Source of the DNA: Bacteroidia bacterium
GTDB taxonomy: Bacteria; Bacteroidota; Bacteroidia; Bacteroidales; UBA932
NCBI GenBank assembly: GCA_030537315.1
Contig: JAUNNZ010000007.1
Span: 381 to 64,380, forward strand
DNA length: 64,000 bases
Direction of reading: 5' to 3'
The notes below the pieces were generated by a model. That model saw nothing but the letters and a program-made list of their open reading frames with translations, did not search any database and was not told where the DNA came from. The translations under genes and the position numbers were made by a program. Positions 59 to 40,711 of the stretch are shown piece after piece (the stretch's first letter is position 1; each line of letters opens with the position of its first letter).

Positions 59-448
59 TCAATACTGATTGAAGTCAACACCCTTCTGAACCACGTTGAG
101 AGAAGACGTCACCGTGCCGCCGATACCATTTGTCGTGAACAGGACAAGCGCCTGCCTTTCCTGCGAATCAAGGGATTCATCGTTGGCCGATGCCGAAACC
201 CTTATTTCTCTCGAACTCTTCCAGGAATCTGCAGACAATGTAAGCCAGCCGGTCTGTCCTCCGGAATACCTGATCTCTGCAGTCCAGGCTGCAGTAGAGA
301 CAACCTTGACAATGGCATATGAATCACCGCAGTCAAGAACCACCGCATCCGGTTCAACCTTTACGGAAGCGGGATCCTCCTGTTCGCACGAACACAGCGA
401 CAAGGCGGCCGCCGCCATCATCGCCAATATCTTTGTAATTTTTCTCAT
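59..448 (-). CDS. BACON-domain lipoprotein
   Basis: Likely start MRKITK at 448; lipobox SLCSC; BACON-like pattern (V.STAAW.A, WLTLS, V.ASAN....R.A...F, L.VVQKG). Confidence 0.75.
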   Translation of the reverse strand: MRKITKILAMMAAAALSLCSCEQEDPASVKVEPDAVVLDCGDSYAIVKVVSTAAWTAEIRYSGGQTGWLTLSADSWKSSREIRVSASANDESLDSQERQALVLFTTNGIGGTVTSSLNVVQKGVDFNQY

Positions 449-475
449 TTCTCCATCATTAAGAAGCATCAGCTC

Positions 476-2821
476 CTATATGTCACGTTCCTGATATTCA
501 AACACGGTATTTCCAATGCGGAACTTGCGTCCGCGATAAAGCCTGATTTTCTTCCCGGCCGCCAATGCCCGATTATTGACCGTTATGCCGTCTTCAACGG
601 CGAACAGGTAAAGGGCGCCGTTGACCATCTTTATTTCAGCTTTCTTCGGGCCGATGCCCGGAGAGACATCCCAGGACATCTCAAGTGTGCAGTCAATGGA
701 CTTACCTATTGTGACAACTGTATTCGGATTCGATGCAAACCACTTGTAAAGAGCGATGTCCATTTCCTTTATCGCACCGCTAGCGTGAAGGAAGAACCGC
801 TCGGAACGTGGCTCTGCGTGTGCAAGGCCGATGGCAATACCGATTGCAAATATCTCAAAAGTATAAACCATATATGGCCTGTAATCCAATGAGAGCCGGA
901 ACGAGAAGAATGACCATAAGAACATGGTGCCCACGCAAATGGCAACAACCACGAAAAGTGAACGGGCATTTATCTTGAAATTCGTTCCATATGACGAACA
1001 GAGGGCTACCACTACGCCGGACAATGTCCATGGTATCCAGTCAATGATGATCGAATTGCTCTGAAGATTCAACAGGATATCCGCGACCGTAGCCAGAAAG
1101 AAGAGCAAAGAAGCACATATACCGGCAATACCCGACCTTGCCAGGATACCCAGCAGTCTTGCATGATGGCCACGACGCCGCACCGACACGAAGCAGAACG
1201 CCATCGTAAGTATGAATATCATTATGAATGCGAACGACGGCAGCAACAGCGGGATATGTTCGATGGACACGTTGAGTTTTTCGGATATTGAGTGAATCAC
1301 ACGGCTGTCGAAGCCTTTGTATGCCGTAAGATACAGTACCCATACAAGCAATCCCCCAAGGACAGCCACGACGACCCATTTAAGATAGTATGGGGCGTTG
1401 CGTATGTCGAACCTGTTCTCCTTGTTGTAATAATGCGCACCATGCCTGCAATTCCTGCCATACTCCGGACAGTGATAATCATTTTCCTCCCAACAGCTCA
1501 TATGCATCGTATGTTCGCATCTTGCGACGACTTCGTCACCGGCCGCATACGGAGCCTTGCAATAGTAACAGGTGTCGCCGACAAGTACTCCCGATATGCT
1601 CATATTGGCATCAGTATATCTTCCCGTATATTTCTTTTTGAATCGTTTATACTGGATCGCCGGAATCAGCAACTGGCACACCAGGTAAAAGAGGAAAAGA
1701 ATCGCCATTGTGAAGATAATGCCCCTGGCAAGCATCACATCGGTAGGAGATGGGTTGACCAATATCGGCTTGAAGAAACTTCCCATCACTATCCCCGTGG
1801 ATCCGGAAGCTACTTTTTCTCCATTGTGATAACAATCGATCACCAATGTTTTTCCGAATCCTGAATACATCTTGTGGTCAGGGTTCTCGAACACGAACCG
1901 ATAATCGGTGTAATCGATATGAAGCTTCTTGAAAATCTCATTTTCAATCTTCACCCAGTCGAACCCATCGAAGATGTTGCCTCCGGTGTTCCGGCAGATG
2001 GTACTCAGGAACGGATACGCATCGTGCTGTTCCTCCGCAGCGACAAGATCGCCGAAAATATCGACAAAATACATCAGATGATGCGCATCGGTGCGCATCG
2101 ACTTGTCCAGAAGTTCTGTTTTTATCTTGAAATAGTTGTCGTCAATCGCGAATCCGTCATCATAGAACACTTTGCCATCAGAAAGGACAAGTAAAACACG
2201 CTCCGAAACATCTGAGAAAGGACCGTTCTGATCGGAAAGGAGATTGAGACCGCGGGAAATCGAACTGTACAGGCGTTTTTCCTCCGTATCAACCGATTTG
2301 AAATAATTATCAAGGACGTATTCAGACGGAGCCATTATCCCACTTGTCTCATATTTCCTTGAAATGAAGGCGACATAAAGGTTGTTGTTAGTGAAAAGGG
2401 TGCTCATTTCCTCCACGGCTGCACGCTCCTTGTCAACCATATCCTGAGGCAGGGTGAGATCCACAAGCACAAGCATCTTCATGTTCAAGGCAACGACCTG
2501 AGCCGCGCCTGTACGCTGAACATCCACCAGATCCGGCTGGGCACCCTGGAACGAAGGACGCCCGAGATAATCAAGTTCCACAACGTCATAAACGACGTCC
2601 GGACTGACCAAAGAGACAGAGCCTATGCTCTGGGCAACCCTTGTATCAACCGTGAATGTCTTGTAATCATCCGAGAAAATAACATCGGTGACTTCAAGCG
2701 TTTTCTTTTCTTTCCCAGTGGAAGCCGGTAAAATATCCTCCAATGGGTTATTGACATTGGCGCATCCTGCCACTGTCAGAAGTGGCACGACGGACAGCAA
2801 TATGCGCCGTATGAATTTCAT
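476..2821 (-). CDS. Membrane protein: lipoprotein signal + vWA + TM + RING-like zinc finger + about 6 TM + degenerate FHA (putative E3 ligase)
   Basis: Lipobox TVAGC; vWA strands MLVLVDLT and LLVLSDG; CYYC-x13-CEHTMHMSC-x7-CPEYGRNC; seven hydrophobic segments; C-terminal VTIGK...IRLYRGRKFRIGNTVFEY FHA-like fold. Confidence 0.75.
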   Translation of the reverse strand: MKFIRRILLSVVPLLTVAGCANVNNPLEDILPASTGKEKKTLEVTDVIFSDDYKTFTVDTRVAQSIGSVSLVSPDVVYDVVELDYLGRPSFQGAQPDLVDVQRTGAAQVVALNMKMLVLVDLTLPQDMVDKERAAVEEMSTLFTNNNLYVAFISRKYETSGIMAPSEYVLDNYFKSVDTEEKRLYSSISRGLNLLSDQNGPFSDVSERVLLVLSDGKVFYDDGFAIDDNYFKIKTELLDKSMRTDAHHLMYFVDIFGDLVAAEEQHDAYPFLSTICRNTGGNIFDGFDWVKIENEIFKKLHIDYTDYRFVFENPDHKMYSGFGKTLVIDCYHNGEKVASGSTGIVMGSFFKPILVNPSPTDVMLARGIIFTMAILFLFYLVCQLLIPAIQYKRFKKKYTGRYTDANMSISGVLVGDTCYYCKAPYAAGDEVVARCEHTMHMSCWEENDYHCPEYGRNCRHGAHYYNKENRFDIRNAPYYLKWVVVAVLGGLLVWVLYLTAYKGFDSRVIHSISEKLNVSIEHIPLLLPSFAFIMIFILTMAFCFVSVRRRGHHARLLGILARSGIAGICASLLFFLATVADILLNLQSNSIIIDWIPWTLSGVVVALCSSYGTNFKINARSLFVVVAICVGTMFLWSFFSFRLSLDYRPYMVYTFEIFAIGIAIGLAHAEPRSERFFLHASGAIKEMDIALYKWFASNPNTVVTIGKSIDCTLEMSWDVSPGIGPKKAEIKMVNGALYLFAVEDGITVNNRALAAGKKIRLYRGRKFRIGNTVFEYQERDI

Positions 2822-2860: not shown

Positions 2861-3745
2861 TCAAATGCACGGGTAGTCATCATCTTTCTTGCCAAGACCT
2901 TCCATCATCTGCTTCGCATTCTCCTTCAGTTGCTTCGCTGCTTTCAGTTTCGACTGCATCATTGAAATGAACATCAGCACCACGGCAACAGCGGCAAGAC
3001 CAAGAAGATAATCCTTTATTCTCTGGATAAAAGGCTTGTAGGCAGCTTCCTGAATCTTAGCCGACGTATTCTTTATGACGATGAAGTGGTCTTCCAACTT
3101 ATCCATTTCAGGCTGAAGTGACGGTACAAGTTCAACCGCCGCCTTCGCCTTGTCGTATTTCTCTTGAATTTCAGCGAACAGCAACTGTTCCTTTCCTTTC
3201 AGCTTCTCAAGTTCGCTCTGGGTCCTTTGTGACATTGAAAGGGCATTGGCCTGCTTGAACATCCTGATGTACAGCGAATCCTGCGACTCTATATAACCGA
3301 CGGATTCCCTGAATTCCGTCTGCGCATCCATCTTTGATTTCAGTTCTGTCATCGCTGCGACCAGAGCCTCGTCGACCTGGCCATAATCGGCAACCTCCTG
3401 CATCAGTCTTTCGTGGTCGGCAATGAAACCCTGATAAGATTGATAATATGTATTCCAGCGGAGCTTCGCTGAATTGTAACGCCTGTTAATATCAGGGTAG
3501 ACATCACTCGGTGCTCCAGGAATTGCATCCGAGATCTCCTCCAGTTCAGAAATGAATGCCCGTATCTTTCTGCTTACCTGCAGCAGCATCTGCCTGTCTT
3601 CCATATCGATGGTTGCGGGAGAAGCCGCAGGGGCAGGGGCAGTAGCCGGTGCAGTGGAGGCGGAAGCATCCTGCGCAAAAGCCGAAGTCCCTGCCGTTGC
3701 AAGAAGCAACAGCACAGATAACAAATATTTCTTTAAAACTGTCAT
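2861..3745 (-). CDS. Exported helical protein with C-terminal TM anchor and Lys-rich tail, unknown function
   Basis: Signal peptide ending AFA-Q; Ala/Pro linker; coiled-coil-like body; TM YLLGLAAVAVVLMFISMM; ATGA overlap with the upstream gene. Confidence 0.8.
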   Translation of the reverse strand: MTVLKKYLLSVLLLLATAGTSAFAQDASASTAPATAPAPAASPATIDMEDRQMLLQVSRKIRAFISELEEISDAIPGAPSDVYPDINRRYNSAKLRWNTYYQSYQGFIADHERLMQEVADYGQVDEALVAAMTELKSKMDAQTEFRESVGYIESQDSLYIRMFKQANALSMSQRTQSELEKLKGKEQLLFAEIQEKYDKAKAAVELVPSLQPEMDKLEDHFIVIKNTSAKIQEAAYKPFIQRIKDYLLGLAAVAVVLMFISMMQSKLKAAKQLKENAKQMMEGLGKKDDDYPCI

Positions 3746-4842
3746 TTTATAATCTGCCTGCTATAATTTGCCGCCTTCTGGAAGATGGAATAAGCCCTTC
3801 TCTGCTCGGCATCAACAAGTCCGTTTGTCTTGACCATATTCTCGATGTCAGCAATCATATCTTCATTCTCCGACGCCATGTCGCGCCGCTCGACAGGATC
3901 ATCCGAAAGCAGCCATTTGGACACATTGCCGTCTATTACCCTCGCGGTCTTGAGCAGAAGCGAGGCATCCACGCCAAGTTTCTTCGGCGTATAGACACAT
4001 TTCATCACCGCCACCGAATCGACGAAATCATTGTAAACGTTCCATATATTCTGCAGGGCGGTGCAGGATGTTGTTATATCCTTGTGGACAAACTGGGACA
4101 TAACAGCCTGTTTCAACTGTGCAAAGACATCTGCTAATTCCTGAGAATCGGCAACGCCGCCTTTCGAGTTTTCCTTCAGGGCATTATAATTCTGGAACAG
4201 ATTTTCCAATGTGGTGTTGGCCGCGGATATCTCCTCATCCTTCCCGAAGCACGGGTTATGACCGATCGTTATATTGTACCGCGTCTGCAAGTCCTTCCCA
4301 GTCATGATCTCTTGTCCTTCAAGCAGATAAATATCCCGCAACGTCACACTGACATTGTTCCCGGGAAGGACATCGAACACCTGTTCGATATAGTCATTGA
4401 CCATCTGGAATTCCGTAGGCTGCGGCTGCAGGCCCTTGTATTCAACCCATTTGTTGAAAATATATTTGGAACGCGGAGACTTGATCGTCCTGATGAGCTC
4501 CTTGCTGAAACGGAACTTGGATTTCGGCTCTGCGTTTATCACATACGGGAACTTGTCCGGGATAATCCTGCCGAAGAAATTGATGATGGACTGATATCTC
4601 ACCGGCTCGCGGAATACGAACAGACTGCGATATGAAATCACGCTCAAGGTAAGAGTGTTCTTCTCTTCGCTGTACTGGAATTTCACCATCACATCGGTGT
4701 CTCTCGAGTCCTGCTTAAGCGCGATATGGTCGGTATATGATTCTTCATTGCTGACATATATATCCTTGACGCTCTGTCCCTTCACCATCGTGCCGGACAG
4801 CAGCATCAATCCAAGAATAACTGCTTTACTTGAAATTCTCAT
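3742..4842 (-). CDS. Exported hypothetical protein of the T6SS/Ubl operon
   Basis: Likely start MRISSK at 4842, 4 nt after the E2 stop; signal peptide; beta-rich N-half and helical C-half. Confidence 0.75.
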   Translation of the reverse strand: MRISSKAVILGLMLLSGTMVKGQSVKDIYVSNEESYTDHIALKQDSRDTDVMVKFQYSEEKNTLTLSVISYRSLFVFREPVRYQSIINFFGRIIPDKFPYVINAEPKSKFRFSKELIRTIKSPRSKYIFNKWVEYKGLQPQPTEFQMVNDYIEQVFDVLPGNNVSVTLRDIYLLEGQEIMTGKDLQTRYNITIGHNPCFGKDEEISAANTTLENLFQNYNALKENSKGGVADSQELADVFAQLKQAVMSQFVHKDITTSCTALQNIWNVYNDFVDSVAVMKCVYTPKKLGVDASLLLKTARVIDGNVSKWLLSDDPVERRDMASENEDMIADIENMVKTNGLVDAEQRRAYSIFQKAANYSRQIIK

Positions 4843-4846
4843 ACAG

Positions 4847-5401
4847 TTAAAAATAAATCCATTCATTCGGTTCACCCTGGCGGATGACCCAGGCCGCCAC
4901 CTGCTGGTCTTCAGGATATGGCGGCTCATTCACAGCGTGATAACGTTCGTACCGCAAATATTCTTCTATCCTTCCTATGCCCCAGGCCAGGCTCGTATAG
5001 CTGCTGAACCTGTTCAGGCAAACATGCCCTGCCATCTTGCCGAACCACCTTATGTTCGGATGCCAGGGATGGGCTATCGGTGTCCCATCGGCGGCAGAGG
5101 TCAGGAACCTGAATTCCGCTGGCGCATCAACACAAGGGAACTCTTCAGGCAAATCTATGCAAAGCAGGAAGCTGTCAGCGAACAGAGGTGGATTCTGAAC
5201 GCCGGGCATTCCAAGCGCCTCAACGTTCTCCACTCCGCAGATACTGCGTATGTGGTACTCCACTTCGTAGCGCGTGGGCATCCCGGCCGCGTTATGAAGC
5301 AGCGGCCGGCAGATGACATCACCACGACCGTCGAACTGTTTGCCGATCTCCTGCCATTCAATCAGCAGACGCCTGTCTCTCCCCTTCAGATCCATAGACA
5401 C
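4847..5401 (-). CDS. Ubiquitin-conjugating enzyme E2-like protein (UBC fold)
   Basis: N-terminal RRLLIEW helix, IDLPEEFP..DAPAEFRF, and HPWHPNI-x7-GHVCL matching the UBC HPN-I...G.ICL active-site signature (Cys codon 5020-5018). Confidence 0.88.
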   Translation of the reverse strand: MSMDLKGRDRRLLIEWQEIGKQFDGRGDVICRPLLHNAAGMPTRYEVEYHIRSICGVENVEALGMPGVQNPPLFADSFLLCIDLPEEFPCVDAPAEFRFLTSAADGTPIAHPWHPNIRWFGKMAGHVCLNRFSSYTSLAWGIGRIEEYLRYERYHAVNEPPYPEDQQVAAWVIRQGEPNEWIYF

Positions 5402-5718
5402 TAACCCGGGAACGGGTCGGGTATTATGAACACAGTATCGTCATTGTGGACGTTGTAGTCAACAAGCTTCTGGTCGGTCTTGCCGATTCGAGGGCGCATC
5501 ACCCGCACGCGGTGGTCGTCAGCGTCCTCCTTTGCAAAGAAATATTCAAGCGGAGCGCCCGTGTCGTCCAGCGACGGGAAATCGAAAATCAATTTTCCGT
5601 CGGAGCCCGTAGCGTGGCGCAAATTGTCCATCAGGGTGGAGAGCGGTGCGTCAGGGTTGGTAACGCGGAACTTCACCTTCCTGTTGAGATAGACAATGTT
5701 CAAAAAGTAATCTTCCAT
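5401..5718 (-). CDS. Ubiquitin-like (beta-grasp) protein ending in Gly
   Basis: C-terminal QKLVDYNVHNDDTVFIIPDPFPG aligns without gaps to the ubiquitin tail [23 protein letters not shown]; stop overlaps the E2 start. Confidence 0.78.
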   Translation of the reverse strand: MEDYFLNIVYLNRKVKFRVTNPDAPLSTLMDNLRHATGSDGKLIFDFPSLDDTGAPLEYFFAKEDADDHRVRVMRPRIGKTDQKLVDYNVHNDDTVFIIPDPFPG

Positions 5719-5731
5719 ATTCGTTTCAATG

Positions 5732-7414
5732 TTATGACTCTGAAAGGATGATCTTCAACCTTATCGGATATATGCCGGCACTGCGCACAAACAGGCCTTT
5801 CTCTATCCTGGAGGCCACTAAGACAGGGTCCTGGCCCAGGCTCCTGCGCACGAAAGTATTGTCTTTCAGGGTGATTGCAACATTTATCTGGTATCCGCAG
5901 TCACGCGTGTCCGTCTGTTCACGATGAATCCGGATTGATTTTATCATATTCTGACCCAAGCCGTAACGTACAGAAAGTTCCGTAACACAGAACAGCCTGA
6001 TGTCGGCGGGAGTCACGATGCGGCTGTTGGTCGCAAGATAGAGCGACGCCATTTCAGGATAGTCGGAGACATTTAGCTCATCCCTGCCCGGGACGGGTGG
6101 GGCGAGAAGATGCACGCTTCCCGGGTCTATACCCAGCGGCGCAGAGAAGGCAACATCACCTTCAAGTGACGGGTTGACCGCAGCGCCGTCCGTTATGAGA
6201 TACTGAACATCAATATTGACTTCGGTCTTATGTCCCACAGGGCCCTGTCGCAGAATAAGGTACGTACCGGATGCGCGCCCCTCCCCGTCACGGGCCGCAA
6301 CGTTGAGCATCTTGTCCACCAGTCCGTTCACAGCCTGGATTGTCTTGTCGCCATTCCTTGAATGGATATCCTGGAAGGCATAAAAATCAGACGAGAACTT
6401 GGCGGAAAGGCTTGTGAGCAATCGGACCAGGCTGCTCCGGTTGAAACGGTCCGCAGCAACTTTCCGCACCTGGACGATACAGTTATGGAAAACCAATTCC
6501 GTCGAAGGACGCATCATCTGCAGGAACTGGCAGGACTCCCCGCCGACACGTGAGAAAGGTGCGCTTGACGAAAGGCTCGTCTCCTGAATGGATGCATTCA
6601 CAAGAATGGCCGGATTGAGTACCAGATTATCCTTGTCCATAGGATAATCGACAGGTATGCCTTCGAATTCAAACTCCAGTTCTATAAGTCCTTTCTCAGC
6701 ATATCCGTATTCCTGAGGGTCGTGCTCCTCAACGGTAAAAAGGCATACATTGTGTGAATTGAACATATCCATCACACCGACGGAATTGTCATACGCCTGA
6801 CTTCTGTTGAAAAGCATCGTATCAAGGGAGAATGCGTCACTGAACGGGAGGTTGGCCGGTTCCCAAGGCTTTGAGATCAGGAGCTGCTTTCCTCCACAAT
6901 ATATCTTCAGATTCGAGAAACCGGAATCCTTCACCACGAAAGAGAATCCGCTCAGATCCTCCACGTTGTCCAGGAACTTCAAGGCCACCTTCCACCTTCT
7001 TCCATCCAGCCTGACAACGGATTGGACGTGAGAGTTGAACGCACGCGTCTTCAAAAGGGGAATGAACTTGAAATCGGTGCCCTCGATGGTAAAAACGGAG
7101 CCGGAATTCAATTCCACCTCATTGATGTTGTCGCTCAACTTCATCGAGACCAGAATGTTGGCCGGCTCGGCGTGCCCCGCCATATACGGCAGCACGGCCT
7201 GGGTATATTCATCTATGACATCACCCTTGAGCCGCTCTATCTCGGCATCTATCTCGTTGGCCTGATAGGCCATCGCTATCATAAGCAGATTGAAGACAGG
7301 GTCATTCTCCAGACCTTCAAGATAGTCGCTCTGGTCGCTCTGGCGCCAGATGTTCATCGCTTCCTTGAGAAGGTCCTCGGCTCGCTGCCTCGTTTCAAAC
7401 GTTGTTTTCTTCAT
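5732..7414 (-). CDS. tssF: T6SS baseplate subunit TssF (Bacteroidota type, divergent)
   Basis: N-terminal W....LE..ENDPVFNLL..AMAY and C-terminal TNSRIVTPADIRLFC motifs typical of T6SSiii TssF; 560 aa; context. Confidence 0.8.
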   Translation of the reverse strand: MKKTTFETRQRAEDLLKEAMNIWRQSDQSDYLEGLENDPVFNLLMIAMAYQANEIDAEIERLKGDVIDEYTQAVLPYMAGHAEPANILVSMKLSDNINEVELNSGSVFTIEGTDFKFIPLLKTRAFNSHVQSVVRLDGRRWKVALKFLDNVEDLSGFSFVVKDSGFSNLKIYCGGKQLLISKPWEPANLPFSDAFSLDTMLFNRSQAYDNSVGVMDMFNSHNVCLFTVEEHDPQEYGYAEKGLIELEFEFEGIPVDYPMDKDNLVLNPAILVNASIQETSLSSSAPFSRVGGESCQFLQMMRPSTELVFHNCIVQVRKVAADRFNRSSLVRLLTSLSAKFSSDFYAFQDIHSRNGDKTIQAVNGLVDKMLNVAARDGEGRASGTYLILRQGPVGHKTEVNIDVQYLITDGAAVNPSLEGDVAFSAPLGIDPGSVHLLAPPVPGRDELNVSDYPEMASLYLATNSRIVTPADIRLFCVTELSVRYGLGQNMIKSIRIHREQTDTRDCGYQINVAITLKDNTFVRRSLGQDPVLVASRIEKGLFVRSAGIYPIRLKIILSES

Positions 7415-7430: not shown

Positions 7431-7889
7431 TCAGTTCCATACCATTATTCGCTTGTGGAACTGGTAGTCCTCGCCTGTTTCAATTATGATACCTGTCACC
7501 ACTATGTGGATCGCACGCTCCTCCCTCATATATGTCATAGCCACCTTCAATTCGCCAAGACGTTTTTCAACCCTGGCTATCGCCGACTTCAATTCAGACG
7601 CGAAAGTGTTGAAATTCCTGGAGTTACCGGAAATTTTCTTTTCATATATGCTTGTGTCCAGAAGAGGAGTGATGTCCTCCTCCCCAACGTCAAGCACAAC
7701 ACCTTCCTTCTCGTCTATCTGCTCGAAACGCAGGTTCGAAAGGACAAAGCCGAACTTCGGATCTATAGGATTGCTGAACAGAGGCGTGGATATCACAAGC
7801 GATATCGATTCGTCAATCGCCTCCTTCAGGTTCTTGTGCCGGACGAACTTCCCGTCCTTTATGGTAAGTGGCAGAGACAGGTCTCCCAT
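7431..7889 (-). CDS. tssE: T6SS baseplate subunit TssE (gp25/GPW family)
   Basis: SISLVIST...DPKFG.....FE and SAIARVEKRL gp25-like motifs; 152 aa. Confidence 0.82.
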   Translation of the reverse strand: MGDLSLPLTIKDGKFVRHKNLKEAIDESISLVISTPLFSNPIDPKFGFVLSNLRFEQIDEKEGVVLDVGEEDITPLLDTSIYEKKISGNSRNFNTFASELKSAIARVEKRLGELKVAMTYMREERAIHIVVTGIIIETGEDYQFHKRIMVWN

Positions 7890-7892
7890 AAG

Positions 7893-9029
7893 CTAGATCA
7901 AAGGTGTATATACGTCCTCCTCAACCTTAGGCGGCACGAACAATGCATCATAGAGCGACTGGTAGAGTGAGGAGAACAATTTCTGCTCAAGTTCAGTGTT
8001 CAGCTCAACGCCAAGGTCGTCGTGCAGTTTCCTGCGGAACTCGCCGCTGATGAAATCCTGCAGCGCCTCGGAAATCTGAGCCTGCATCTCTTCACGGAGC
8101 GCTTCCATCTTTTCCTGGACGCTTTGTGTCAGCTCCGGTTGGAGAGTCTCATATAATTCCTTCCTCAACTGTTCGCGGAGGGCGTCCACGTCAATCGTGC
8201 TGTCCTTGACCTCCACTCCGTCCAGGACAACGGCCGCCCTGCCAAGATAATCGTCCAGCCACTTCAGCCACAGCTGGACATCATACAGTGAACTTTCAGG
8301 TATCTCCTCGTGCTCTTCTGTATTCGGGTCCAAGACATAATATTTGACTGAGTTTGCTATTTCAGCAGTAAGGAGGATGAACTCATCGACCCTTATCTCA
8401 GGCCTGAGGCTCTTCAACAGAAGCATATTCTGGAGCATTGCACGCTTCATATCTCCAGAAGAAAGATTTTTATGTCCGGATACGGCCTCCATCTTCCCTC
8501 TCAACGATTCGCAGGCCACTGCAAAGCGAGGGTCTGAAACCATCTGCATACACGGGACTATGTATTCCCTGTCAAGAGATATCTCTCCGTCTTTAACGGA
8601 AAAGCGCATCAACGGCAGTTCATCACACTTGCCCAGTTCAGAGAAGCTTCGAATTTGATATACATACTCCGGCCGTGACATAGGCACGGTATCGCGTTCG
8701 AATTCAACAACTTCCTGTCCTATTCCCACGGTGAGGTAATGAAGTCCGTCACTCAAGTCCCCTATCTGGATTGAAGACCGGTCCTCCACATCTATCATCC
8801 TGCCTGATGGAAGCAGCGCCGTGCAACCGTCAACCTCGAATTCAAAAGACTTCCTGACGAAAGCTCCCTCGCATTTGAAATGCTCATTGGGCAATATGCC
8901 CACGCGAGAGCCGAATGCGGAACGCAGCAATGCCAGATCCCTGGCATCAGACTCTTTTGACAACGCCTTGAGAGCCTCCGCAGTTATCTCCATTCCAGGT
9001 TTCCAATTGATTCGGGAATTAATATCCAT
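7893..9029 (-). CDS. tssK: TssK-like baseplate protein with a helical C-terminal region
   Basis: N-terminal INWKPGMEI and YIVPC motifs as in T6SSiii TssK; lies between tssG and tssE. Confidence 0.7.
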   Translation of the reverse strand: MDINSRINWKPGMEITAEALKALSKESDARDLALLRSAFGSRVGILPNEHFKCEGAFVRKSFEFEVDGCTALLPSGRMIDVEDRSSIQIGDLSDGLHYLTVGIGQEVVEFERDTVPMSRPEYVYQIRSFSELGKCDELPLMRFSVKDGEISLDREYIVPCMQMVSDPRFAVACESLRGKMEAVSGHKNLSSGDMKRAMLQNMLLLKSLRPEIRVDEFILLTAEIANSVKYYVLDPNTEEHEEIPESSLYDVQLWLKWLDDYLGRAAVVLDGVEVKDSTIDVDALREQLRKELYETLQPELTQSVQEKMEALREEMQAQISEALQDFISGEFRRKLHDDLGVELNTELEQKLFSSLYQSLYDALFVPPKVEEDVYTPLI

Positions 9030-9040
9030 AAAGTGAAAAA

Positions 9041-9826
9041 TTAATCAAGTTCAATGTTGTAATCAAGTATCATTTTCCCTCCTTCGACTCCGTCACCGGA
9101 CTTCTGCCTGATTGCAAAACGGCAGACAGTATCCACAGGGATGAACCATTCGAGGAGGAAGTTGCAGAACGGCTTTATTTCAGCTGCCATCCTGCCGTAT
9201 TCCTCCACATCAAGGCCATCGACAAGCAAGTCATACCTTACCATAGGGAGCCAGCTTACAGTTGTATCCGTGCCGCTGAAACGTCCTCGCGACATTTTTA
9301 CCGGACAGCCCAGCACTGATTTCATCAGTTCGCGGATGAACACGAAATCTCCCCTCTTCTTGCTGACATAAGGAAGAATATAGGCTGCCTCACGGATATA
9401 CGGGTCGGTATTCTCATCCACCTCCACTCCATAATATCTGCTGAGTATAAAGTCCATCTTGTCCTCCAGAAGTTCAGACACCGTCCTCTCAATCCGGAGT
9501 TTTTTCCGGAAGTTGAAGGAATCTATAGGCAGGAACGCTTCCATCAGCAGATGGTTGCGCTTCTTCATAGCTTCATACTTTCCTTTGACCTCCTTTCCCT
9601 TCAGTTCTTCCTCCCTCGTGATGACACCCTGTGGAAGGAGTTTCAGGAAACCGTCCCGCGCCAGGGTCACCTCTGCCGTCTCGGGATCGACAGCAAGCGT
9701 ATCGTCGTTGTAATTCCGATAGAACGTGCCCTCGTGTCTCGCCACCCACTTGTCTTCAAGCTCAGGGTAGAGATAGTTCAAGAGCATCTCAGCGCTTATT
9801 TCCTTCAGATCCGATCTTAATTCCAT
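9041..9826 (-). CDS. tssG: T6SS baseplate subunit TssG (Bacteroidota type)
   Basis: GTFYRNYNDD, LARDGFLKLLPQG, FLPID and WFIP motifs; context. Confidence 0.75.
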   Translation of the reverse strand: MELRSDLKEISAEMLLNYLYPELEDKWVARHEGTFYRNYNDDTLAVDPETAEVTLARDGFLKLLPQGVITREEELKGKEVKGKYEAMKKRNHLLMEAFLPIDSFNFRKKLRIERTVSELLEDKMDFILSRYYGVEVDENTDPYIREAAYILPYVSKKRGDFVFIRELMKSVLGCPVKMSRGRFSGTDTTVSWLPMVRYDLLVDGLDVEEYGRMAAEIKPFCNFLLEWFIPVDTVCRFAIRQKSGDGVEGGKMILDYNIELD

Positions 9827-10962
9827 CAGTCGATTTCAAAATACGACAGCCTTCCGCCAGCCCTTACCTTCAGCACATCCCTCGGCGGAATGCCGAGTTC
9901 GCCCAAAGTCAGGGACTTGTACGGGAATGTACCGTCAATCTGCCTGTATTCGTTCTGCCACAGCGCCGAAAATGGCACTTCACGCATCTGCGGATGCGCT
10001 TCGGCAAAAGCCGCAACCTTGCGCCCCGGCAGCATGACCCTCCAGGAGCGCCCGCCATCCTTCTCTTCAACCGTATCCACAAAGCAGTCGTCGTGCAGGA
10101 AGAATGTCACATCCTGTGCGCCGGTGACAGCGGCAAAACCACCCAGCACGGCATCAACCGTGCTTTCAACATTAATATCCATCTTTCCGACAGGCTCCCA
10201 GCGCCCGTGCACCGGACAGTCGTCGTCGTATGCTTCAAACTCAGCGGTCCTCGTGGTCAGATGCTGACCGTCATAATAAAAAATCTTCCCTCCCAGGGAT
10301 GTGAACTCCCCCCTCTCCATCTCTTCAGTGTGCAGGAGCTTGATTGCTTCCTGAACCTGCACAGCCCCTATCACTGATGCCGCGACCCCCGTTGTCGGGA
10401 TGTGGCCGACATCCTCGTTGCGCCTGATCGCACCCGCGCAGGATGCGCGGCGCTTCAGCTCATCCAGCCCGGCAGGGCCCAGATTGCAGGCGTAACAGTT
10501 CTTTCCGGGCACAAACACCCTTGCAGTCCCTTCCAGGCCGTCTATCCCCCCGTCAACCCAAGGCGTGCCGGCTCTCATACAGAGCCTGTTGATGCAGTAT
10601 CTCGCCCACCTGCTGTCCACGCAGCCGATCACAACGTCCGCTTTGCGGAATACACCCAACCCCACATCATAAGCGACGTCGCCGAAAATCGTTTCAATCC
10701 CAATGCCGGGATTAAGTTCTTTCAGTCTCTCTGCGGCGGCATCTACCTTGCGGCGACCTGCAGCCGCATCTTCGCGGCGGAACAGGACCGAACGGTTCAG
10801 ATTCGAAGCCTCAACCAGATCGAAGTCCACGATGGTGATATGTCCCGCTCCCGCGAGCGCCAGATTCTTCAGCACTTCATTCCCCAGCGCCCCGCATCCG
10901 GCAACTATTATACTCGCTTCCCGCAACCTTTCCTGAGAGAAGGCCAGCCCGTCAATATTCAT
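9826..10962 (-). CDS. ThiF/UBA-family E1-like activating enzyme with C-terminal extension
   Basis: GCGALG nucleotide loop, DFDLVEASNLNR, GCVDS, CYAC...CPVH zinc site, candidate catalytic Cys in KRRASC (C175); 1-nt overlaps with vgrG and tssG. Confidence 0.9.
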   Translation of the reverse strand: MNIDGLAFSQERLREASIIVAGCGALGNEVLKNLALAGAGHITIVDFDLVEASNLNRSVLFRREDAAAGRRKVDAAAERLKELNPGIGIETIFGDVAYDVGLGVFRKADVVIGCVDSRWARYCINRLCMRAGTPWVDGGIDGLEGTARVFVPGKNCYACNLGPAGLDELKRRASCAGAIRRNEDVGHIPTTGVAASVIGAVQVQEAIKLLHTEEMERGEFTSLGGKIFYYDGQHLTTRTAEFEAYDDDCPVHGRWEPVGKMDINVESTVDAVLGGFAAVTGAQDVTFFLHDDCFVDTVEEKDGGRSWRVMLPGRKVAAFAEAHPQMREVPFSALWQNEYRQIDGTFPYKSLTLGELGIPPRDVLKVRAGGRLSYFEID

Positions 10963-13900
10963 TACAGATACTTCTCACAGAACGTCTTGACAGCGTACAA
11001 GTCTGAATTACTGAAAGATTTAAGTGTACCATTGTTAAAATACATTGTAGTGCCCTCAGTATCAGATATCAGTATCTGTCCGCGGCTTTCAGCGCTCCAG
11101 TTCCTGAATCCCTGAATTGATTTGCCGGTGAGTTGCTGGACAGGATTCAACTTGTCGAGGATGGCCTTGCCTGCATCCAGGATAGACGCCTTCAATTGGC
11201 CTTTCAGGCCGACATATTGACCTTTAAACTTATACTTGATATACTTTCCCCACTCATCATCACTATTGTAAATATCATTTTTGGTAATTGCTGCACTGCT
11301 GAGGCCAGATATCTTTTCGGTGCCATAGGCTACGTCAAGGACGGCTGCCACAATTTGACGTTTAATCTTATTGGGATCCACAAGAAGATACCTGGGATCC
11401 TTTATTATATCATCAAATTCACGCTGAATAGCATCCGTATAAGGCCCCAGATCTGCAGTAGACATAATTTTGGTCAGGTTGTCACCTTTGCTGTTTTGCA
11501 CCTGCCAGACCGTGTTGACCTGTACCAGTTTAAAACCAGTGGTAAGGCATACATTCCGGAGCTTTTTTATCATTTCGTTGGCTGTTGATAGCAAATCTGA
11601 CACTGAAGGGCCGAACGACGGATCACTTTGCCATTTCAATTTGTCGATTTTGCCCAACACGTGGTTATGCATCACCTTGATTTTGCCGACGAATTTGGAG
11701 CGCATCCACGTTTTCCTATATTCCTCATAATCGTCAGTAAATTTGATGGCAGAGCTTTTACAGTCAAACAGTTTGGCATCCTTGTTAATAGCCTTCCTGA
11801 TCAAAGTGTCAAAGGTGATTGCGTTGGAGTCCAGTATAGGCTTATGTTCATCTCCTTGCTTAAAAGTAAATGTGTCTTTCCACGTCTTGACGGTTTCCGC
11901 CAAGACACTGTCTATTTCCCTTCTATTATATAAGAGTGTATTCACAGCCCCGTCTATGAAATTCAAGGCATTGAGGAGCTTGGCTATCTTATCTCTTTCG
12001 TCATTTGAAGACGTTCCCTTAGGAATAACGAAACCCGTCCTAGGCATTTTCGCCGCAGCTCCGCCCGCCTGCATCATAAGGAAACGACCGCTCTTAAGAC
12101 TCAATGTACCTTCGCAAGGCTTGATGAAAATCTCGATCACATTCCTGAGATAGCTCAGATCAATGAGCATAGGCATAGCAGTATCAGTGACGAAATCAGC
12201 CGCCGCACCCAGAATCATATCTGAATATGTGCGGAAAGATCCCTTCTTTGCGTTGAAACCGGATTCAATGGTGACATTGTTTCCCGCTGTCAAGGTAATG
12301 TTCTTTCCGGCAATGTTTATGTCTCCGTTCGGGGCATTGATTGAAATTCCGGTGAATGCATTGATTCCGACTGTTCCGAAAGGACTGTTTATTGTAATGG
12401 ATTTGTCGGTAGAGCTCATCTTCAATGAATACGTACCGTAGTAATCGGTGAATTCAGTGGAGCCCAGCAGACGTGGCTTGTACTCTGAGTAACTGCCACC
12501 GACCATATCCGGCAGGACCCAACTCATCGGAGCCATCATAATAGGCATTGCATCCGCACCCAAAACGCTGTTTCCGCTTTTCGGGTCACTCATAAGCATC
12601 ATCTGCCCGTGCTCGGAAGACAAGACCACCGTATTGCGACGCGAAAGGTACTGGCCTTTGTTCTTCTGCTGATCCATTGTCGGCAGGAAGCCCGTGACAT
12701 ACGGCATATCCACATTGCCGTTCTCAAACTCAATCAGCGCACTGTCTCCAACAGCAGCCTTGAAGAATGCGGCACCTCCATTTGAATTCGCCATCTGGGT
12801 GCAAACCCTGATCCAAGGACTGGAATCCGCGCCATCCTTCTGCCAGCAGAAACGCACACGCACACGGCCAAGGAAAGAAGGGTCATCCACATCGGTGACG
12901 TATGCTCTCTGGCTACCGGCCTTTCTTACCGGAATGACGGAACAAGGCGGGATAGGCGCCCCGTTCACCTGAACGGCGACAACGTCTATCGGCTGACAGG
13001 CAGCCGTGGACCCATCCGCATTAACAATGACATCAAATGAAGCATTGATGCCGGTCACCATATAGTTAATCCCATCGAAAACAATGATGTCTCCCAGCAT
13101 CACATCCTTCGATATATTGGAAGAAATCTGCAATGAGAGCTGCTTCCGGCCTGCTTCGGCCTCCTTCTCCCAAACCAAAGAATAGAAAACTGAATTGACA
13201 TTAAGGTTCTTGTCCTTATCAAGAGATGTTATTTTGCGGTCACTGATACCGAAAAGCAACTTCTTGTCAACCGTCTCCCCCGAGAAGAATTTTTCATTGA
13301 AATGCTTATTGACGGTCTCCGCAAGACTACTGGTGTCCGAGGCATTTTCCTTGACAATATTCACTGCCGCAAGGAAAAGTCCGGCACCCATCGTATGCGT
13401 AAACAACGTGCCGAATGTATGATAGAAGCCCATTGCAGTATAGGCACGCTCCTCTTTGCTACTGCTGAACTTGTCTTTCTCGACGGTTTCAAAATACTCA
13501 TTTCCCGAAAGCTCAGAATTCCTGACATAGTTTTTGCCGGAGTATTTGCTGCCGCCCTTCTCCATATAGTTGTTATGGAAGGACTCCGAATCAGCCCCGT
13601 GATTATGCGAGGTATTGAAATCGGTATACACTATCCTGTCAAAATCGCTGCTGGTGAAATTATTCCCGGTCTTTGCTCCGAGAGTCAGCTTATTATTCCT
13701 GTCATCATAATACAGGAACTCGCCGCATCGGTTCGCCACTCTGGAGAGGAAACTGTAGAATGTCTCGTTGTACTGGACAAGATACGGCTGCAGGAATTCA
13801 TCTCCGTTCTCGTCCGTATTCTTGGTCTGGTCTGTCCCTGTGAAAGGCAAGCGCAGAATCTGCATATTCTTGCATTCCGTGGAAAGGGATGGGGAAAGCG

Positions 13901-14534
13901 TCTTGGATTCTTTTTTGAAGATATCGATACCAAGGCGCTTGTTTGTATATGCCTTGCTGTATTCAAATGAATCCAGAACCTTATCGGGACTGTATATTAC
14001 AAGATCAAGGAACAACTTTTTCTGCGCTGTATCATATCTTGGTGAAGATTCATAGACTTCATATCCGTCAGCAATCAGCTTGGCAGTGACTGTAGTATCA
14101 ACTTCAATGCTTGTGTTACCGGTCCGGGCATCCACAACCTCCTTAAAACTGACAACCTCAAGTTTTGCCCGCGCCTCCTTGAACCAGTCTGCAATACCGG
14201 GCAATATGCCGGCATTGAATTCGGTAGAGCATTCCAGCGTGGCCCTGATACAACTTGGCTCGTACAACTGTTTTTGGTACTTCAATGAGAAAAGGTTGAG
14301 CTTCCCGAAATCAATGGAATCTTTGATGACTTTTGTCTGTTTTTCTTCTCCCTCTTTTTTCGGTGGCTCATCAGTGGTTATTATGACTCTGCCCGAAACA
14401 GGGGTATCATTACAATTTGTAAAAGACACAACGAAATCCTCATCATCAATGGTCCAAGAATTGTAATACCTTTTAACCACACTCCCATCTTTGTATAAAG
14501 TCAAAGTGAGACGGTATCCATAAAAATTACCCAT
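10962..14534 (-). CDS. vgrG: VgrG/TssI spike protein with long C-terminal extension
   Basis: gp27-like VQYNETFYSFLSRVANRCGEFLYYD; gp5 OB-fold DDPSFLGRVRVRFCWQ...SPWIRV...VGD..LIEFENGNVDMPYV; beta-repeats ISINAPNGDINIAGKNITL; 1190 aa. Confidence 0.9.
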   Translation of the reverse strand: MGNFYGYRLTLTLYKDGSVVKRYYNSWTIDDEDFVVSFTNCNDTPVSGRVIITTDEPPKKEGEEKQTKVIKDSIDFGKLNLFSLKYQKQLYEPSCIRATLECSTEFNAGILPGIADWFKEARAKLEVVSFKEVVDARTGNTSIEVDTTVTAKLIADGYEVYESSPRYDTAQKKLFLDLVIYSPDKVLDSFEYSKAYTNKRLGIDIFKKESKTLSPSLSTECKNMQILRLPFTGTDQTKNTDENGDEFLQPYLVQYNETFYSFLSRVANRCGEFLYYDDRNNKLTLGAKTGNNFTSSDFDRIVYTDFNTSHNHGADSESFHNNYMEKGGSKYSGKNYVRNSELSGNEYFETVEKDKFSSSKEERAYTAMGFYHTFGTLFTHTMGAGLFLAAVNIVKENASDTSSLAETVNKHFNEKFFSGETVDKKLLFGISDRKITSLDKDKNLNVNSVFYSLVWEKEAEAGRKQLSLQISSNISKDVMLGDIIVFDGINYMVTGINASFDVIVNADGSTAACQPIDVVAVQVNGAPIPPCSVIPVRKAGSQRAYVTDVDDPSFLGRVRVRFCWQKDGADSSPWIRVCTQMANSNGGAAFFKAAVGDSALIEFENGNVDMPYVTGFLPTMDQQKNKGQYLSRRNTVVLSSEHGQMMLMSDPKSGNSVLGADAMPIMMAPMSWVLPDMVGGSYSEYKPRLLGSTEFTDYYGTYSLKMSSTDKSITINSPFGTVGINAFTGISINAPNGDINIAGKNITLTAGNNVTIESGFNAKKGSFRTYSDMILGAAADFVTDTAMPMLIDLSYLRNVIEIFIKPCEGTLSLKSGRFLMMQAGGAAAKMPRTGFVIPKGTSSNDERDKIAKLLNALNFIDGAVNTLLYNRREIDSVLAETVKTWKDTFTFKQGDEHKPILDSNAITFDTLIRKAINKDAKLFDCKSSAIKFTDDYEEYRKTWMRSKFVGKIKVMHNHVLGKIDKLKWQSDPSFGPSVSDLLSTANEMIKKLRNVCLTTGFKLVQVNTVWQVQNSKGDNLTKIMSTADLGPYTDAIQREFDDIIKDPRYLLVDPNKIKRQIVAAVLDVAYGTEKISGLSSAAITKNDIYNSDDEWGKYIKYKFKGQYVGLKGQLKASILDAGKAILDKLNPVQQLTGKSIQGFRNWSAESRGQILISDTEGTTMYFNNGTLKSFSNSDLYAVKTFCEKYL

Positions 14535-14540
14535 ATCCTA

Positions 14541-15257
14541 TCAGTTTTCCAAGGTCATATCACCCAACTGCATCTTGAAGGCAGCATCTACGCCTTTTGC
14601 AGCCTTTTCCTCATTTATCTTGTTTTCATTGCTGTCGTCTGACTTGCACCAACGTTCGTAGGCGTCTTCAATCTCTTTCGTCTTGCTCTCCTTCTGGGCC
14701 TTCACCTTCTCGACGAATGAATTATAAGCGTCTTCAAATTCCTTCTTTGTCTCATCCTGTGTTTCCTTCGGAAGGGTGGCGGCGGCAACTCCCGCCTTTG
14801 TGGCGGCAACGTCGAAATCAAGCTTCATCCGCTTGTCGCAGTCTTCATACAAAGCATTAACCAGATCAAGCATAGTGTCCTTCCTGTCCTTGTCAACAGG
14901 CGGGACAGTCAGCACAATAATCTTCGGAGCAGGCTTGTCGTCAGACTCTTTCTTTGCGGACGGATCGTCCACAAGATCCAGTTTAAACTCAGGATGTTCA
15001 AGCAATATAGCCTTGCATATGTGCGGTATCAGATCCTGGTCAATAGGAATAAGATGGAGGCAGGTATCATCCGGCTTTGCCAGCTGCGCCACCTTTTCTA
15101 TCTCGTATTCGTTTTCGTCAATGACCACCTTCACGGATAGAAGGGAAACAGGATCAGGCTTGACGCAGATATTCATATACCTGTAAGCAAGCAAGGTACA
15201 ATATCCATACAGGCGGCCCTGCATATTGTTTAGAATGTCCAAAATCTGAAATGTCAT
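14541..15257 (-). CDS. Ribosome recycling factor (RRF)-like paralogue, degenerate
   Basis: Collinear RRF pattern: NICVKPDPVSLLSVKV (~IRTGRANPALLD.I.V), PDDTCLHLIPID (~PDARTLVIQPWD), IIVLTVPPVDKDRK (~IRL.IPPLTEERR), terminal KESKTKEI helix. Confidence 0.7.
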   Translation of the reverse strand: MTFQILDILNNMQGRLYGYCTLLAYRYMNICVKPDPVSLLSVKVVIDENEYEIEKVAQLAKPDDTCLHLIPIDQDLIPHICKAILLEHPEFKLDLVDDPSAKKESDDKPAPKIIVLTVPPVDKDRKDTMLDLVNALYEDCDKRMKLDFDVAATKAGVAAATLPKETQDETKKEFEDAYNSFVEKVKAQKESKTKEIEDAYERWCKSDDSNENKINEEKAAKGVDAAFKMQLGDMTLEN

Positions 15258-15269: not shown

Positions 15270-15656
15270 TTACTTACCTGTTGCTTGTGATCCCTGGCCC
15301 GGGAACGTTACCGAAATCTGACCTCCCCACGCGCACATACATTTACCATTGTCAAGCAAAGCCGGCATCTGGCAGACCTTGACCTGTGCCCCCGGATTCC
15401 AGGGCGCCGAGATCACCGGGATGCAAGGCATAGGGGTGAGAACGCCCATTGCGGCAGCCGTTGCGGCAGCCACTTGCGGGTTGGACATCGACTGGCACAT
15501 TCCAAAAGGTTTGATGTTCACCATAGGGGCGAAATCCATAATGTTGGCCATCGGCATATTCTGGTTCATCGGACGCATACCGACTACGGTCAGAGGCGAT
15601 GGTGCCATTCCGAAGCTGCATTGGAGCATAGCTCCCATCGTAACGAATTTCCCCAT
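15270..15656 (-). CDS. PAAR-like spike tip protein (DUF4280)
   Basis: GAMLQCSFG, NIKPFGMC, PCIPVISAPW, KCMCAWGGQI are DUF4280 motifs. Confidence 0.92.
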   Translation of the reverse strand: MGKFVTMGAMLQCSFGMAPSPLTVVGMRPMNQNMPMANIMDFAPMVNIKPFGMCQSMSNPQVAAATAAAMGVLTPMPCIPVISAPWNPGAQVKVCQMPALLDNGKCMCAWGGQISVTFPGQGSQATGK

Positions 15657-17477: not shown

Positions 17478-18812
17478 TTATCTGCCTTTCCTGGCCTTCA
17501 TCTGTATCTGAACATCCGTCAGATCGTTGCCATAAGGCTTTACATATATGGTTTCTTCCCTGTAACCTTCTTTTCTGAGTTTGATTTTGTAATTCTGCCG
17601 TCCAGGCAGGCCCTGGACTATGCAAGGCACCACGCCTTTCGGCTCGTCATTGACATACACTTCGGCACCGATGACATTCGAATGAATGCTGAGGGTCGCG
17701 AAGTCGGCCTCTGGCGGAGCCATACTCAGTGAAACGGGGCTGGAATCCTCTATCCTGAGGAACTGCACCCGTGATTCCACACCGGAACGCCTTGTGTTGA
17801 CTGCATAAAAACCTTCCGGAAGTTTTCCAGACCATTTGCCGAAACCGACAGATTCCCTGTTGATGAGAATCTCCATATCGGACTGCGGGGCGGTTATTTC
17901 CACGTCAGCGGAAATTTCAACCTTTACCGGCTGACTGCCGGATGCCGAGCGGGCTTCCTCTGAAAGCCCCCACCTGCTTTTCTGCCAGAAAAGGGAGGCA
18001 TCGTGCTCCTTGTCAAGTTGGACCGTTTTCTTCTCGGCCTCGCCGATTTCCACATCGGCATCATAATAGTATATGCCTTTCCACAAAACCGTCAGACGAT
18101 GACGGCCGGGGGTGATACGCCCCGTTGTGACCTCCCCCCTGCCAAGATATTCCCGGTCAAGATACACCTCTGAGTCCTGATCGTCCGGCCTGACAGTGAT
18201 ATAGCTGTAAAAAGGCTGAAGAGTTATATTCTGTTCTTCCTTCCCCGTGTCAGTCAGCGTAACGCTGTCGCACACCGACGAATGGAACGGGGCTTCCACC
18301 TTATATTTATGCGTGCCGATCGGCAAGTAGAACTGCGCCTTGCCGTCACGGACCAGGGTCGTGGTGGAATCGACCGATACAATGGCATCTTCGGGCCATA
18401 CGTTGAAGGTAAGCCATTGCCTGGACAGTTTGAACAGCTTGTCCGGGCTGTAAGTTGCAAGATATGCGGAATAGTGCTTGAAGCGCTTCAATTTGACAGG
18501 CGCTTTCCATATGCACTGTCCGAAGTCAGGATGTTTTATGACAAGATAGGAAGTCTTGTGAGGGGCGATGACCCTGACCACACCATCATCCTCCTGCGGT
18601 TCGATTGGATTTTTGCCGTCGGCAAGGAAAGTGAACCCGCTTTCCCCCGTTTTGAAATCTATGATTGCGCCTGATTTGTCAAGGTCGACCTTAAGGCCCG
18701 GCTGGGACGGCTTGTACTTGATAAAATCAAGAACCTCCATCTGCTGGGCGGCTGCGCCGGCGGCAGACAGAAGGCCCAGGGCAACGGCAATCCACAGCCT
18801 CAATCCGGACAT
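17478..18812 (-). CDS. Exported PEGA-domain protein
   Basis: Likely ATG at 18812 overlapping the upstream TGA; signal peptide ending AAA-QQ; several PEGA-like repeats (SNVIGAEVYVND...GVVP....L......IKLRKEGY). Confidence 0.8.
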   Translation of the reverse strand: MSGLRLWIAVALGLLSAAGAAAQQMEVLDFIKYKPSQPGLKVDLDKSGAIIDFKTGESGFTFLADGKNPIEPQEDDGVVRVIAPHKTSYLVIKHPDFGQCIWKAPVKLKRFKHYSAYLATYSPDKLFKLSRQWLTFNVWPEDAIVSVDSTTTLVRDGKAQFYLPIGTHKYKVEAPFHSSVCDSVTLTDTGKEEQNITLQPFYSYITVRPDDQDSEVYLDREYLGRGEVTTGRITPGRHRLTVLWKGIYYYDADVEIGEAEKKTVQLDKEHDASLFWQKSRWGLSEEARSASGSQPVKVEISADVEITAPQSDMEILINRESVGFGKWSGKLPEGFYAVNTRRSGVESRVQFLRIEDSSPVSLSMAPPEADFATLSIHSNVIGAEVYVNDEPKGVVPCIVQGLPGRQNYKIKLRKEGYREETIYVKPYGNDLTDVQIQMKARKGR

Positions 18813-19291: not shown

Positions 19292-19298
19292 AGACTTC

Positions 19299-26129: not shown

Positions 26130-26137
26130 CCCCGGTA

Positions 26138-27016: not shown

Positions 27017-27026
27017 ATTGAAGTTG

Positions 27027-27733: not shown

Positions 27734-27742
27734 AGGGCAGCA

Positions 27743-28986: not shown

Positions 28987-28989
28987 AAT

Positions 28990-32186: not shown

Positions 32187-32189
32187 GCT

Positions 32190-33347: not shown

Positions 33348-33348
33348 T

Positions 33349-34680: not shown

Positions 34681-34683
34681 AAT

Positions 34684-38508: not shown

Positions 38509-38513
38509 TTAGA

Positions 38514-40699: not shown

Positions 40700-40711
40700 A
40701 AATTAAACGTT

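Follow-up and report, generated by a model that had tools for sequence, protein, structure and literature searches.

Why does a bacterial type VI secretion locus carry a probable ubiquitin-conjugating enzyme? The question is raised by a stretch of 64,000 nucleotides from a gut Bacteroidia bacterium (assembly GCA_030537315.1, contig JAUNNZ010000007.1), referred to below as the window, in which the gene for a predicted ubiquitin-conjugating enzyme (E2) lies in an operon of a type VI secretion system (T6SS). Because this E2, a ubiquitin-like protein (Ubl), an activating enzyme (E1) and a membrane protein resembling a ligase (E3) all sit in a T6SS without the usual membrane anchor, the anchor of the system is likely assembled or activated through protein tagging. 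The proteins concerned are encoded as follows.

4847-5401, minus strand: E2 with a predicted UBC fold, HPN at residues 114-116 and Cys128 in GTG numbering (homologue alignment, family profile, predicted fold).
5401-5718, minus strand: Ubl of 105 amino acids (aa), a single beta-grasp domain with a C-terminal Gly and without a propeptide (predicted fold, conservation).
9826-10962, minus strand: E1 of 378 aa with a ThiF-family adenylation domain (ThiF, E 2.5e-55).
476-2821, minus strand: candidate E3 of 781 aa with a lipoprotein signal (C20), a periplasmic vWA-like domain, a transmembrane (TM) segment, a RING-H2-like finger, six more TM segments and an FHA-like domain (family matches, conservation, hydropathy).
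2861-3745, minus strand: envelope protein of 294 aa with a signal peptide, a helical periplasmic part, one C-terminal TM segment and a Lys-rich cytoplasmic tail ending in P-x-I (no named family).
3742-4860, minus strand: probable exported protein of 372 aa, likely starting at the ATG at 4842 (no known family).

The E2 open reading frame (ORF) encodes 184 aa when read from GTG. RRL..EW occupies residues 10-16, LPEEFP residues 84-89, followed by CVDAPAEFRF, and residues 111-130, which hold HPN and Cys128, are HPWHPNIRWFGKMAGHVCLN. An initial annotation, made from the sequence alone, had named all these motifs correctly, although its spacing after LPEEFP was off by one or two residues. A search at E<=0.001 yielded 447 homologues, and residue conservation was counted over the 120 that were retrieved. 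P112, W113, H114, P115, N116, R118, G125, V127, C128 and N130 are invariant (120/120); the other four cysteines (31, 55, 81, 90) are not. Given the number of homologues and this invariance, the motifs are not a chance occurrence. The start codon is more likely the ATG at 5395 (Met3) than the GTG, because position 1 is backed by the top residues of only 1 of the 120 homologues and the closest relatives have 182-184 aa; the catalytic cysteine would therefore be Cys126.

The E2 protein alone gave no match in Pfam, NCBIfam, PADLOC or the PDB sequences. At the family level, 62 of 72 members matched UQ_con at E<=0.1 (best 2.9e-6), and the family profile placed HPN and Cys in register with those of UBE2K (E 0.02). 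Fold comparison of the predicted structure identified the UBC alpha/beta fold. Both the eukaryote-style HPN with its catalytic Cys and the UBC fold of the initial annotation are thus borne out; judged by predicted fold and motif, the E2 is real and eukaryote-like. A GTDB scan detected 180 relatives, and the best 80 loci were analyzed. Fused forms were judged from these loci and from a search of representatives of all lengths. The ORF has 172-244 aa in 80/80 loci, so that the description of the E2 as stand-alone holds for its domain structure but misses the fixed place of the gene in the T6SS locus. Among distant E2 relatives, fusions to EAD11, RING or YukD-like Ubl domains are common, and a frequent feature of these relatives (P0130-P0270) is a terminal low-complexity tail with a short K/I-rich or D/I-rich strand. 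Of 22 pattern matches in viral contigs, none was a relative.

Compared with the eukaryotic enzymes UBE2K, UBE2D2 and Rad6/UBE2B, to which it is 17-22% identical, the window E2 is longer by about 30 residues, which fall into three insertions; insertions are seen in the beta-sheet region as well as before and after HPN. Its HPN-to-Cys spacing exceeds that of UBE2K by 3 residues, its loop after the catalytic Cys is shorter than in the eukaryotic enzymes, and it can be aligned only to about their residue 136-146. In E2s, the acceptor lysine is positioned by an acidic or Ser residue (D117 in UBE2D, the second Asp of the pair in UBE2K). The profile alignment shows that the Asp-Asp pair after the EP motif of UBE2K is replaced by Pro-Tyr/Phe, which puts Tyr/Phe at the aligned positioning site; the invariant E159, E164 and D165 are nearby in the sequence. 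The E2 is therefore no more than putatively lysine-directed, as had initially been proposed. The HPN Asn stabilizes the oxyanion, according to the accessible text of one source (PMC11354881).

The GTG of the E2 gene overlaps the Ubl stop codon by one base, and the ATG lies 5 nt past that stop. Translational coupling of the E2 to its Ubl, a further element of the initial annotation, fits the window genome but is not conserved, since no more than 30 of the 76 gaps that could be measured are <=10 nt long, the median being 18.5 nt (4/80 loci without an in-frame ATG were excluded). In one RNA-library run, contigs covered the E2 (268 nt, 3 differences) and the Ubl (305 nt, 2 differences); such contigs carry neither strand nor level, and the second of the mappings had no silent control. 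Three raw-read runs contained 0-2 reads, and a scan for promoters and terminators found nothing specific to the E2.

The Ubl, directly upstream of the E2 in 80/80 loci, ends in Gly in all of them; its model (pLDDT 88.8) is a beta-grasp with fold matches to talin F0, the EccD5 Ubl and ubiquitin, and 55 of 69 family members matched Rad60-SLD and 28 of 69 YukD, both at E<=0.1. In the E1, ThiF covers residues 9-251 and is followed by a C-terminal extension of about 125 aa; a Zn site (C156, C159, C249, H252) and C175 are invariant in 73/73 full-length copies, and C175 is the candidate catalytic Cys, the roles of the site and of this residue being assigned from knowledge of E1 families. The RING-H2-like ligands of the candidate E3 (C418, C421, C435, H437, H440, C443, C451, C458) are kept in 72-73 of 73 copies, and K685 and K693 are invariant. 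Among 28 members of its family, 26 matched zf-RING_2, 25 Prok-RING_1, 17 FHA and 1 VWA. Hydropathy indicates a signal and seven segments, which would place RING and FHA in the cytoplasm.

Of the two envelope proteins, the 294-aa protein, a candidate Ubl acceptor, forms a fusion with the RING protein in 3 loci, and the 372-aa gene follows the E2 in 78/78 loci; in the ESM Atlas, both proteins matched unnamed clusters only. A C-terminal P-x-[ILMV] is common to the 294-aa protein (71/71) and TssK (77/77), and is absent from the ordinary TssK of genomes G146 and G253. When a complex of RING protein residues 380-781 plus the Ubl and the C-terminal 45 residues of TssK was predicted, the score was 0.01 in two runs, in which no controls were folded; this counts neither for nor against binding.

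The gene order of the locus is largely fixed. The ubl and E2 genes are adjacent in 80/80 loci, tssF-ubl-E2 is found in 79/79 and E1-tssG-tssK-tssE-tssF-ubl-E2 in 72/74; the six loci without E1 and the six without the RING gene all stop at contig edges. The 80 loci come from Bacteroidales or close relatives, two of them from one assembly; one (L062), labelled Oscillospiraceae, is probably a mis-binned contig. Mean identity to the window is 81% for TssC, 71% for the Ubl, 58% for the E2, 56% for the E1, 39-45% for the baseplate and 35% for the RING protein. The distribution is patchy: of 61 genomes from the window's genus, 2 have the locus. In twelve flank stretches from 9 genomes, the neighbours are housekeeping genes, and one stretch also has, outside the locus, a region resembling a phage or element; no recurrent toxin-immunity pairs were found in these stretches, and no effector-immunity cassettes or conjugation genes were seen in the flanks examined.

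The anchor is where this locus departs from other systems of its kind. The membrane complex of T6SSiii is TssNQOPR, and this complex, or part of it, is stated for all Bacteroidota T6SS (PMC10781749). We did not find it at the E2 locus, with G146 and G449 as positive controls. In the window, tssK and tssG are separated by 11 nt with no tssN between them, and they are adjacent in 72/74 loci. Among 401 genomes of the order, the E2 was detected in 4, TssC in 10 and TssN over the cut-off in 6 (8 further weak TssN matches, in genomes without TssC, were not counted). The three genomes with divergent TssC (G000, G193, G394) have the E2 in 3/3 and TssN in 0/3, whereas those with ordinary TssC have TssN in 6/7 and the E2 in 0/7. 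TssN and TssC were also searched in the genomes of the first 50 of the 80 E2 loci: TssC was present in 47 genomes and TssN in one, on a second, ordinary T6SS, and one further genome had a sub-cut-off TssN match on another contig. Neither TssR nor TssO was found in four E2 genomes, and the control had both. In a quick tree of 40 TssC rows, E2-linked and ordinary TssC are split by one branch with support of 100; since the tree is unrooted and G394 is on a long branch, it is compatible with one origin or several.

In G013, the fourth genome with the E2, the E1, the Ubl, the RING protein and JAB proteins are present as well, and TssC was not found; the module is therefore older than, or independent of, its graft onto the T6SS. 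In G013:C685 (L113, L117, L118), one long co-oriented cluster includes the E1, a Ubl with three residues past the Gly, the E2, two JAB proteins and the RING membrane protein, as well as further Ubl-like ORFs, a PF10139 protein and an S8 peptidase. The deep-branching T6SS-Ubl locus G394:C19 (L109, L110) has a very acidic Ubl, a TssK with a small beta-domain at its end, a 700-aa protein with a JAB motif and a DUF4280 fusion, with an ORF that is kinase-like by eye adjoining. An idea of a charge swap between the Ubl and the tails was dropped, as it rested on this one genome (G394). JAB is present in G193 and G394 (membrane JAB) as well as in G013; no JAB peptidase was detected in G000, the 80 loci or the 12 flank stretches.

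We conclude that the E2 is very probably active with the adjoining Ubl, and that its product probably serves the T6SS. Our main reading, with a probability of roughly 0.45, is that the cascade ligates the Ubl either to TssK or, on their cytoplasmic side, to the membrane proteins encoded in the locus, which would enable docking of the baseplate. By family chemistry, and with the residues concerned being invariant, the E1 would adenylate Gly105 of the Ubl and load the Ubl on Cys175, from which it would pass to Cys128 of the E2, a step suggested by predicted fold and motif. The RING pattern and TM layout are consistent with an inner-membrane vWA-RING-FHA protein that would hold the E2~Ubl thioester at the membrane. 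The acceptor lysine might belong to TssK, to the RING protein itself (K685/K693) or to the 294-aa protein with its Lys-rich tail, and the P-x-I end shared by TssK and the 294-aa protein could, speculatively, be the recognition signal. By analogy, the membrane-bound beta-grasp would take over from the cytoplasmic TssN domain of ordinary T6SSiii, which is ubiquitin-like, and recruit the baseplate; descent of the Ubl from that TssN domain was not detected by sequence comparison. As no JAB is found in the clade, tagging would be one-way; two deeper lineages keep a membrane JAB. A little more tentatively, the locus may define a T6SS subtype with a covalently made docking hub, in which E1, E2 and membrane RING ligate a free Ubl tag, in place of the ubiquitin-like domain fused into TssN, onto the envelope complex or TssK via a C-terminal P-x-I.

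The operon runs from 24692 to 59 and comprises 23 co-oriented genes with intergenic gaps of -35 to 50 nt. Besides the genes given above, it contains the following.

22461-24692, minus strand: TssH/ClpV-type AAA+ ATPase, the first gene (TIGR03345, E 1e-141, below its cut-off).
21982-22446, minus strand: TssB-like sheath protein (labelled by position and because it is 32-35% identical to the neighbour of tssC in ordinary loci).
20609-21964, minus strand: TssC of the divergent clade (TssC, E 1.8e-101; tree).
20166-20558, 19739-20137 and 19299-19715, minus strand: three TssD/Hcp genes (Pfam family matches).
18812-19333, minus strand: fourth Hcp-sized ORF (no Pfam match).
17478-18821, minus strand: exported PEGA-domain protein (PEGA, E 4.7e-19).
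15659-17461, minus strand: conserved protein of 600 aa (no known family).
15270-15656, minus strand: PAAR-like DUF4280 tip protein (family matches).
14541-15257, minus strand: protein resembling ribosome recycling factor (RRF, E 1.5e-10).
10962-14534, minus strand: VgrG whose divergent C-terminal extension belongs to no known family (Phage_base_V, E 1.7e-15).
9041-9826, minus strand: TssG-like protein (labelled by its position and its size; without a family match).
7893-9029, minus strand: TssK with a coiled-coil C-terminal part ending in acidic-P-x-I (TIGR03353, E 8.5e-7).
7431-7889, minus strand: TssE, gp25-like (GPW_gp25, E 1.7e-7).
5732-7414, minus strand: TssF-like baseplate protein (labelled by size, position and a blastp E of 4e-5 to the 616-aa neighbour of tssN in G146; no Pfam match).
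59-469, minus strand: BACON-domain lipoprotein, the last gene (no counterpart found in the 80 related loci).

The T6SSiii core of TssB, C, D, E, F, G, H, I and K is thus present, with C, D, E, H, I and K recognized by family, B and F by blastp and position, and G by position only. Several features of the locus vary. The RRF-like gene (Pfam RRF over the cut-off) is found in 54/80 loci and changes position together with vgrG and the 600-aa gene as one block, of which G442 has a second copy upstream of clpV. The VgrG extension of about 350 aa diverges between genomes, with a shared end motif W-x(4-6)-G-x-I-L/I-x-S and no immunity gene after it; the extensions of nine proteins are related but divergent and matched no Pfam or toxin family. 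Two genomes have related 180-aa ORFs between tssB and tssC (L161:11632-12174, L162:11781-12323). Beyond clpV, two paralogous lipoproteins (window 24822-27151; 35% identical, fimbrillin-like by eye, no family match) precede a cell-division cluster, and similar genes flank the G448 locus; the cluster itself (27284-41947, plus strand) is presumably an ordinary division and cell-wall cluster, from mraZ to ftsZ.

Other uses of the cascade have to be weighed against docking. The Ubl could be a cargo or recycling tag on effectors, VgrG or contracted sheath, routing them to the tube or to TssH/ClpV much as ubiquitin does with p97, in which case the anchor would be built non-covalently by the RING, 294-aa, 372-aa and PEGA proteins. 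This is possible but unlikely. The locus has no effector-immunity cassettes, so cargo may be chosen in trans; the E1 directly follows vgrG in the window, ClpV heads the operon, and the absence of JAB from the clade suits a tag that leaves with its cargo. However, ubl-E2 always has tssF on one side and the envelope genes on the other, and E1 adjoins tssG, whereas vgrG varies in position; moreover, the ligase candidate is an integral membrane protein, and the loss of TssN is left unexplained.

Somewhat less probable still is a regulatory switch, in which the vWA-RING-FHA protein would be an envelope sensor and a non-structural tag on a cytoplasmic regulator or TssK would license firing, replacing the PpkA/Fha phosphorylation known from proteobacterial T6SS. 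The layout of that protein (vWA-like part periplasmic, RING and FHA cytoplasmic), the module without a T6SS in G013 and the kinase-like ORF next to the G394 locus are compatible with such a switch, and the membrane JAB of the deeper lineages would reset the tag, but no reset enzyme was found in the 80 loci or G000. The FHA motif is S-x-x-H; the FHA consensus here has G-K and no S-x-x-H. In addition, the Ubl is as conserved as the structural tube proteins, which argues against a purely regulatory tag.

An anti-phage conjugation system of the Bil kind, tagging phage tail proteins and merely sharing an island with the T6SS, appears improbable. According to the accessible parts of two sources, characterized bacterial Ubl cascades are antiviral and one tags a phage tail fibre (PMC11601603, 10.1101/2023.09.26.559546); T6SS parts are tail homologues, and the patchy distribution would also suit a defence island. 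Against this, the cascade genes are interleaved with baseplate genes in a fixed order, the flanks are housekeeping and the recurrent neighbours are not defence genes, PADLOC gave no match for the E2, the Ubl or the RING protein, and the E2 does not have the CEHH of BilB. The least probable alternative is a non-lysine or non-transferring chemistry (a thioester E2~Ubl functional in itself, or transfer to an N-terminus, Ser/Thr or lipid), for which the insertions before and after HPN, Tyr/Phe in place of the second Asp and the invariant R118, N130 and H155 could speak, but the HPN Asn is invariant, a RING partner is present, and BilB acts on lysines even though its site has diverged further (10.1101/2023.09.26.559546).

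If the docking reading is correct, ubiquitin-type conjugation would be an assembly step of a bacterial nanomachine and not an antiviral response. To our knowledge, characterized bacterial Ubl cascades are antiviral or stress-linked and have no E3. The named records with this locus include cultured hosts (Xylanibacter ruminicola D31d, Prevotella sp. ne3005, Millionella massiliensis and Bacteroides mediterraneensis An793), so a complete E1-E2-RING set with built-in candidate substrates makes bacterial RING-dependent conjugation directly testable. RING-type bacterial operons are predicted, and we found no test of them in the accessible literature; Burroughs, Iyer and Aravind (2011) reportedly described such operons and may already list the E2 and RING families. 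A Ubl-E1-E2-RING cascade in a T6SS locus was not found in the literature searched, subscription journals being largely outside that search, and prokaryotic Ubl systems are discussed without a T6SS link in the accessible part of PMC7159879.

Among known conjugation systems, the eukaryote-like prokaryotic Ub-E1-E2-RING-JAB operons, as described for Ca. Caldiarchaeum subterraneum in the accessible text of PMC11354881, likewise have a Ubl, an E1 with a separate catalytic Cys and a canonical E2, and the long spacer between the last two ligands of the window RING is that of prokaryotic RINGs in the same text. The window has the Gly-ended Ubl, the E1 with its Cys, the E2 and the RING, and no JAB/Rpn11 peptidase; it differs in the polytopic 781-aa lipoprotein that carries the RING, in the absence of JAB from the clade and in the contractile-tail setting. 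Bil, Bub and CBASS cascades are covered by 10.1101/2023.09.26.559546, PMC11601603 and PMC11601596. Type I/II BilABCD and Bub share the separate E1, E2 and Ubl genes, with the Ubl directly upstream of the E2. Type II BilABCD, which in the accessible part of 10.1101/2023.09.26.559546 has the CEHH motif in BilB, no E3, inactive and active adenylation domains in BilD and a deubiquitinase (DUB), was ruled out, as the window has an HPN-type E2, a 378-aa E1, no DUB and a gene order other than Ubl-E2-DUB-E1. CBASS Cap2, an E2-E1 fusion next to a CD-NTase, was ruled out as well, because the genes are separate here and Cap2 models were matched by the E1 domain only. Bub (DUF6527 / 6E) has genes for JAB (BubC) or DUF6527 (BubE) in the accessible text of PMC11601603, and it was ruled out since neither family is among the operon products. 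The EccD/YukD domain of the type VII secretion system (T7SS) is likewise a beta-grasp in a secretion system and among the top fold matches of the Ubl, but that of EccD is fused to membrane helices and unconjugated, whereas the window Ubl is free, Gly-ended and accompanied by E1 and E2.

The closest relative of the secretion machinery is T6SSiii. The accessible parts of PMC10942478 and PMC11901371 list GA1-GA3 only as the T6SS types of gut Bacteroidales. T6SSiii (GA1-GA3) shares with the window locus TssB-like, TssC, several TssD, TssE, TssF-like, TssG-like, TssH, VgrG, PAAR-like and TssK proteins, envelope proteins with vWA-like and helical periplasmic parts, and a beta-grasp domain near the baseplate. 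The window TssC, about 35-40% identical to that of T6SSiii, forms a separate branch; TssN, O and R were not found at the window system, and its beta-grasp forms a separate protein that ends in Gly and has genes for E1, E2 and RING alongside. The locus contradicts the survey claim that all Bacteroidota T6SS have TssNQOPR or part of it (PMC10781749), and it points to another anchor for a contractile tail.
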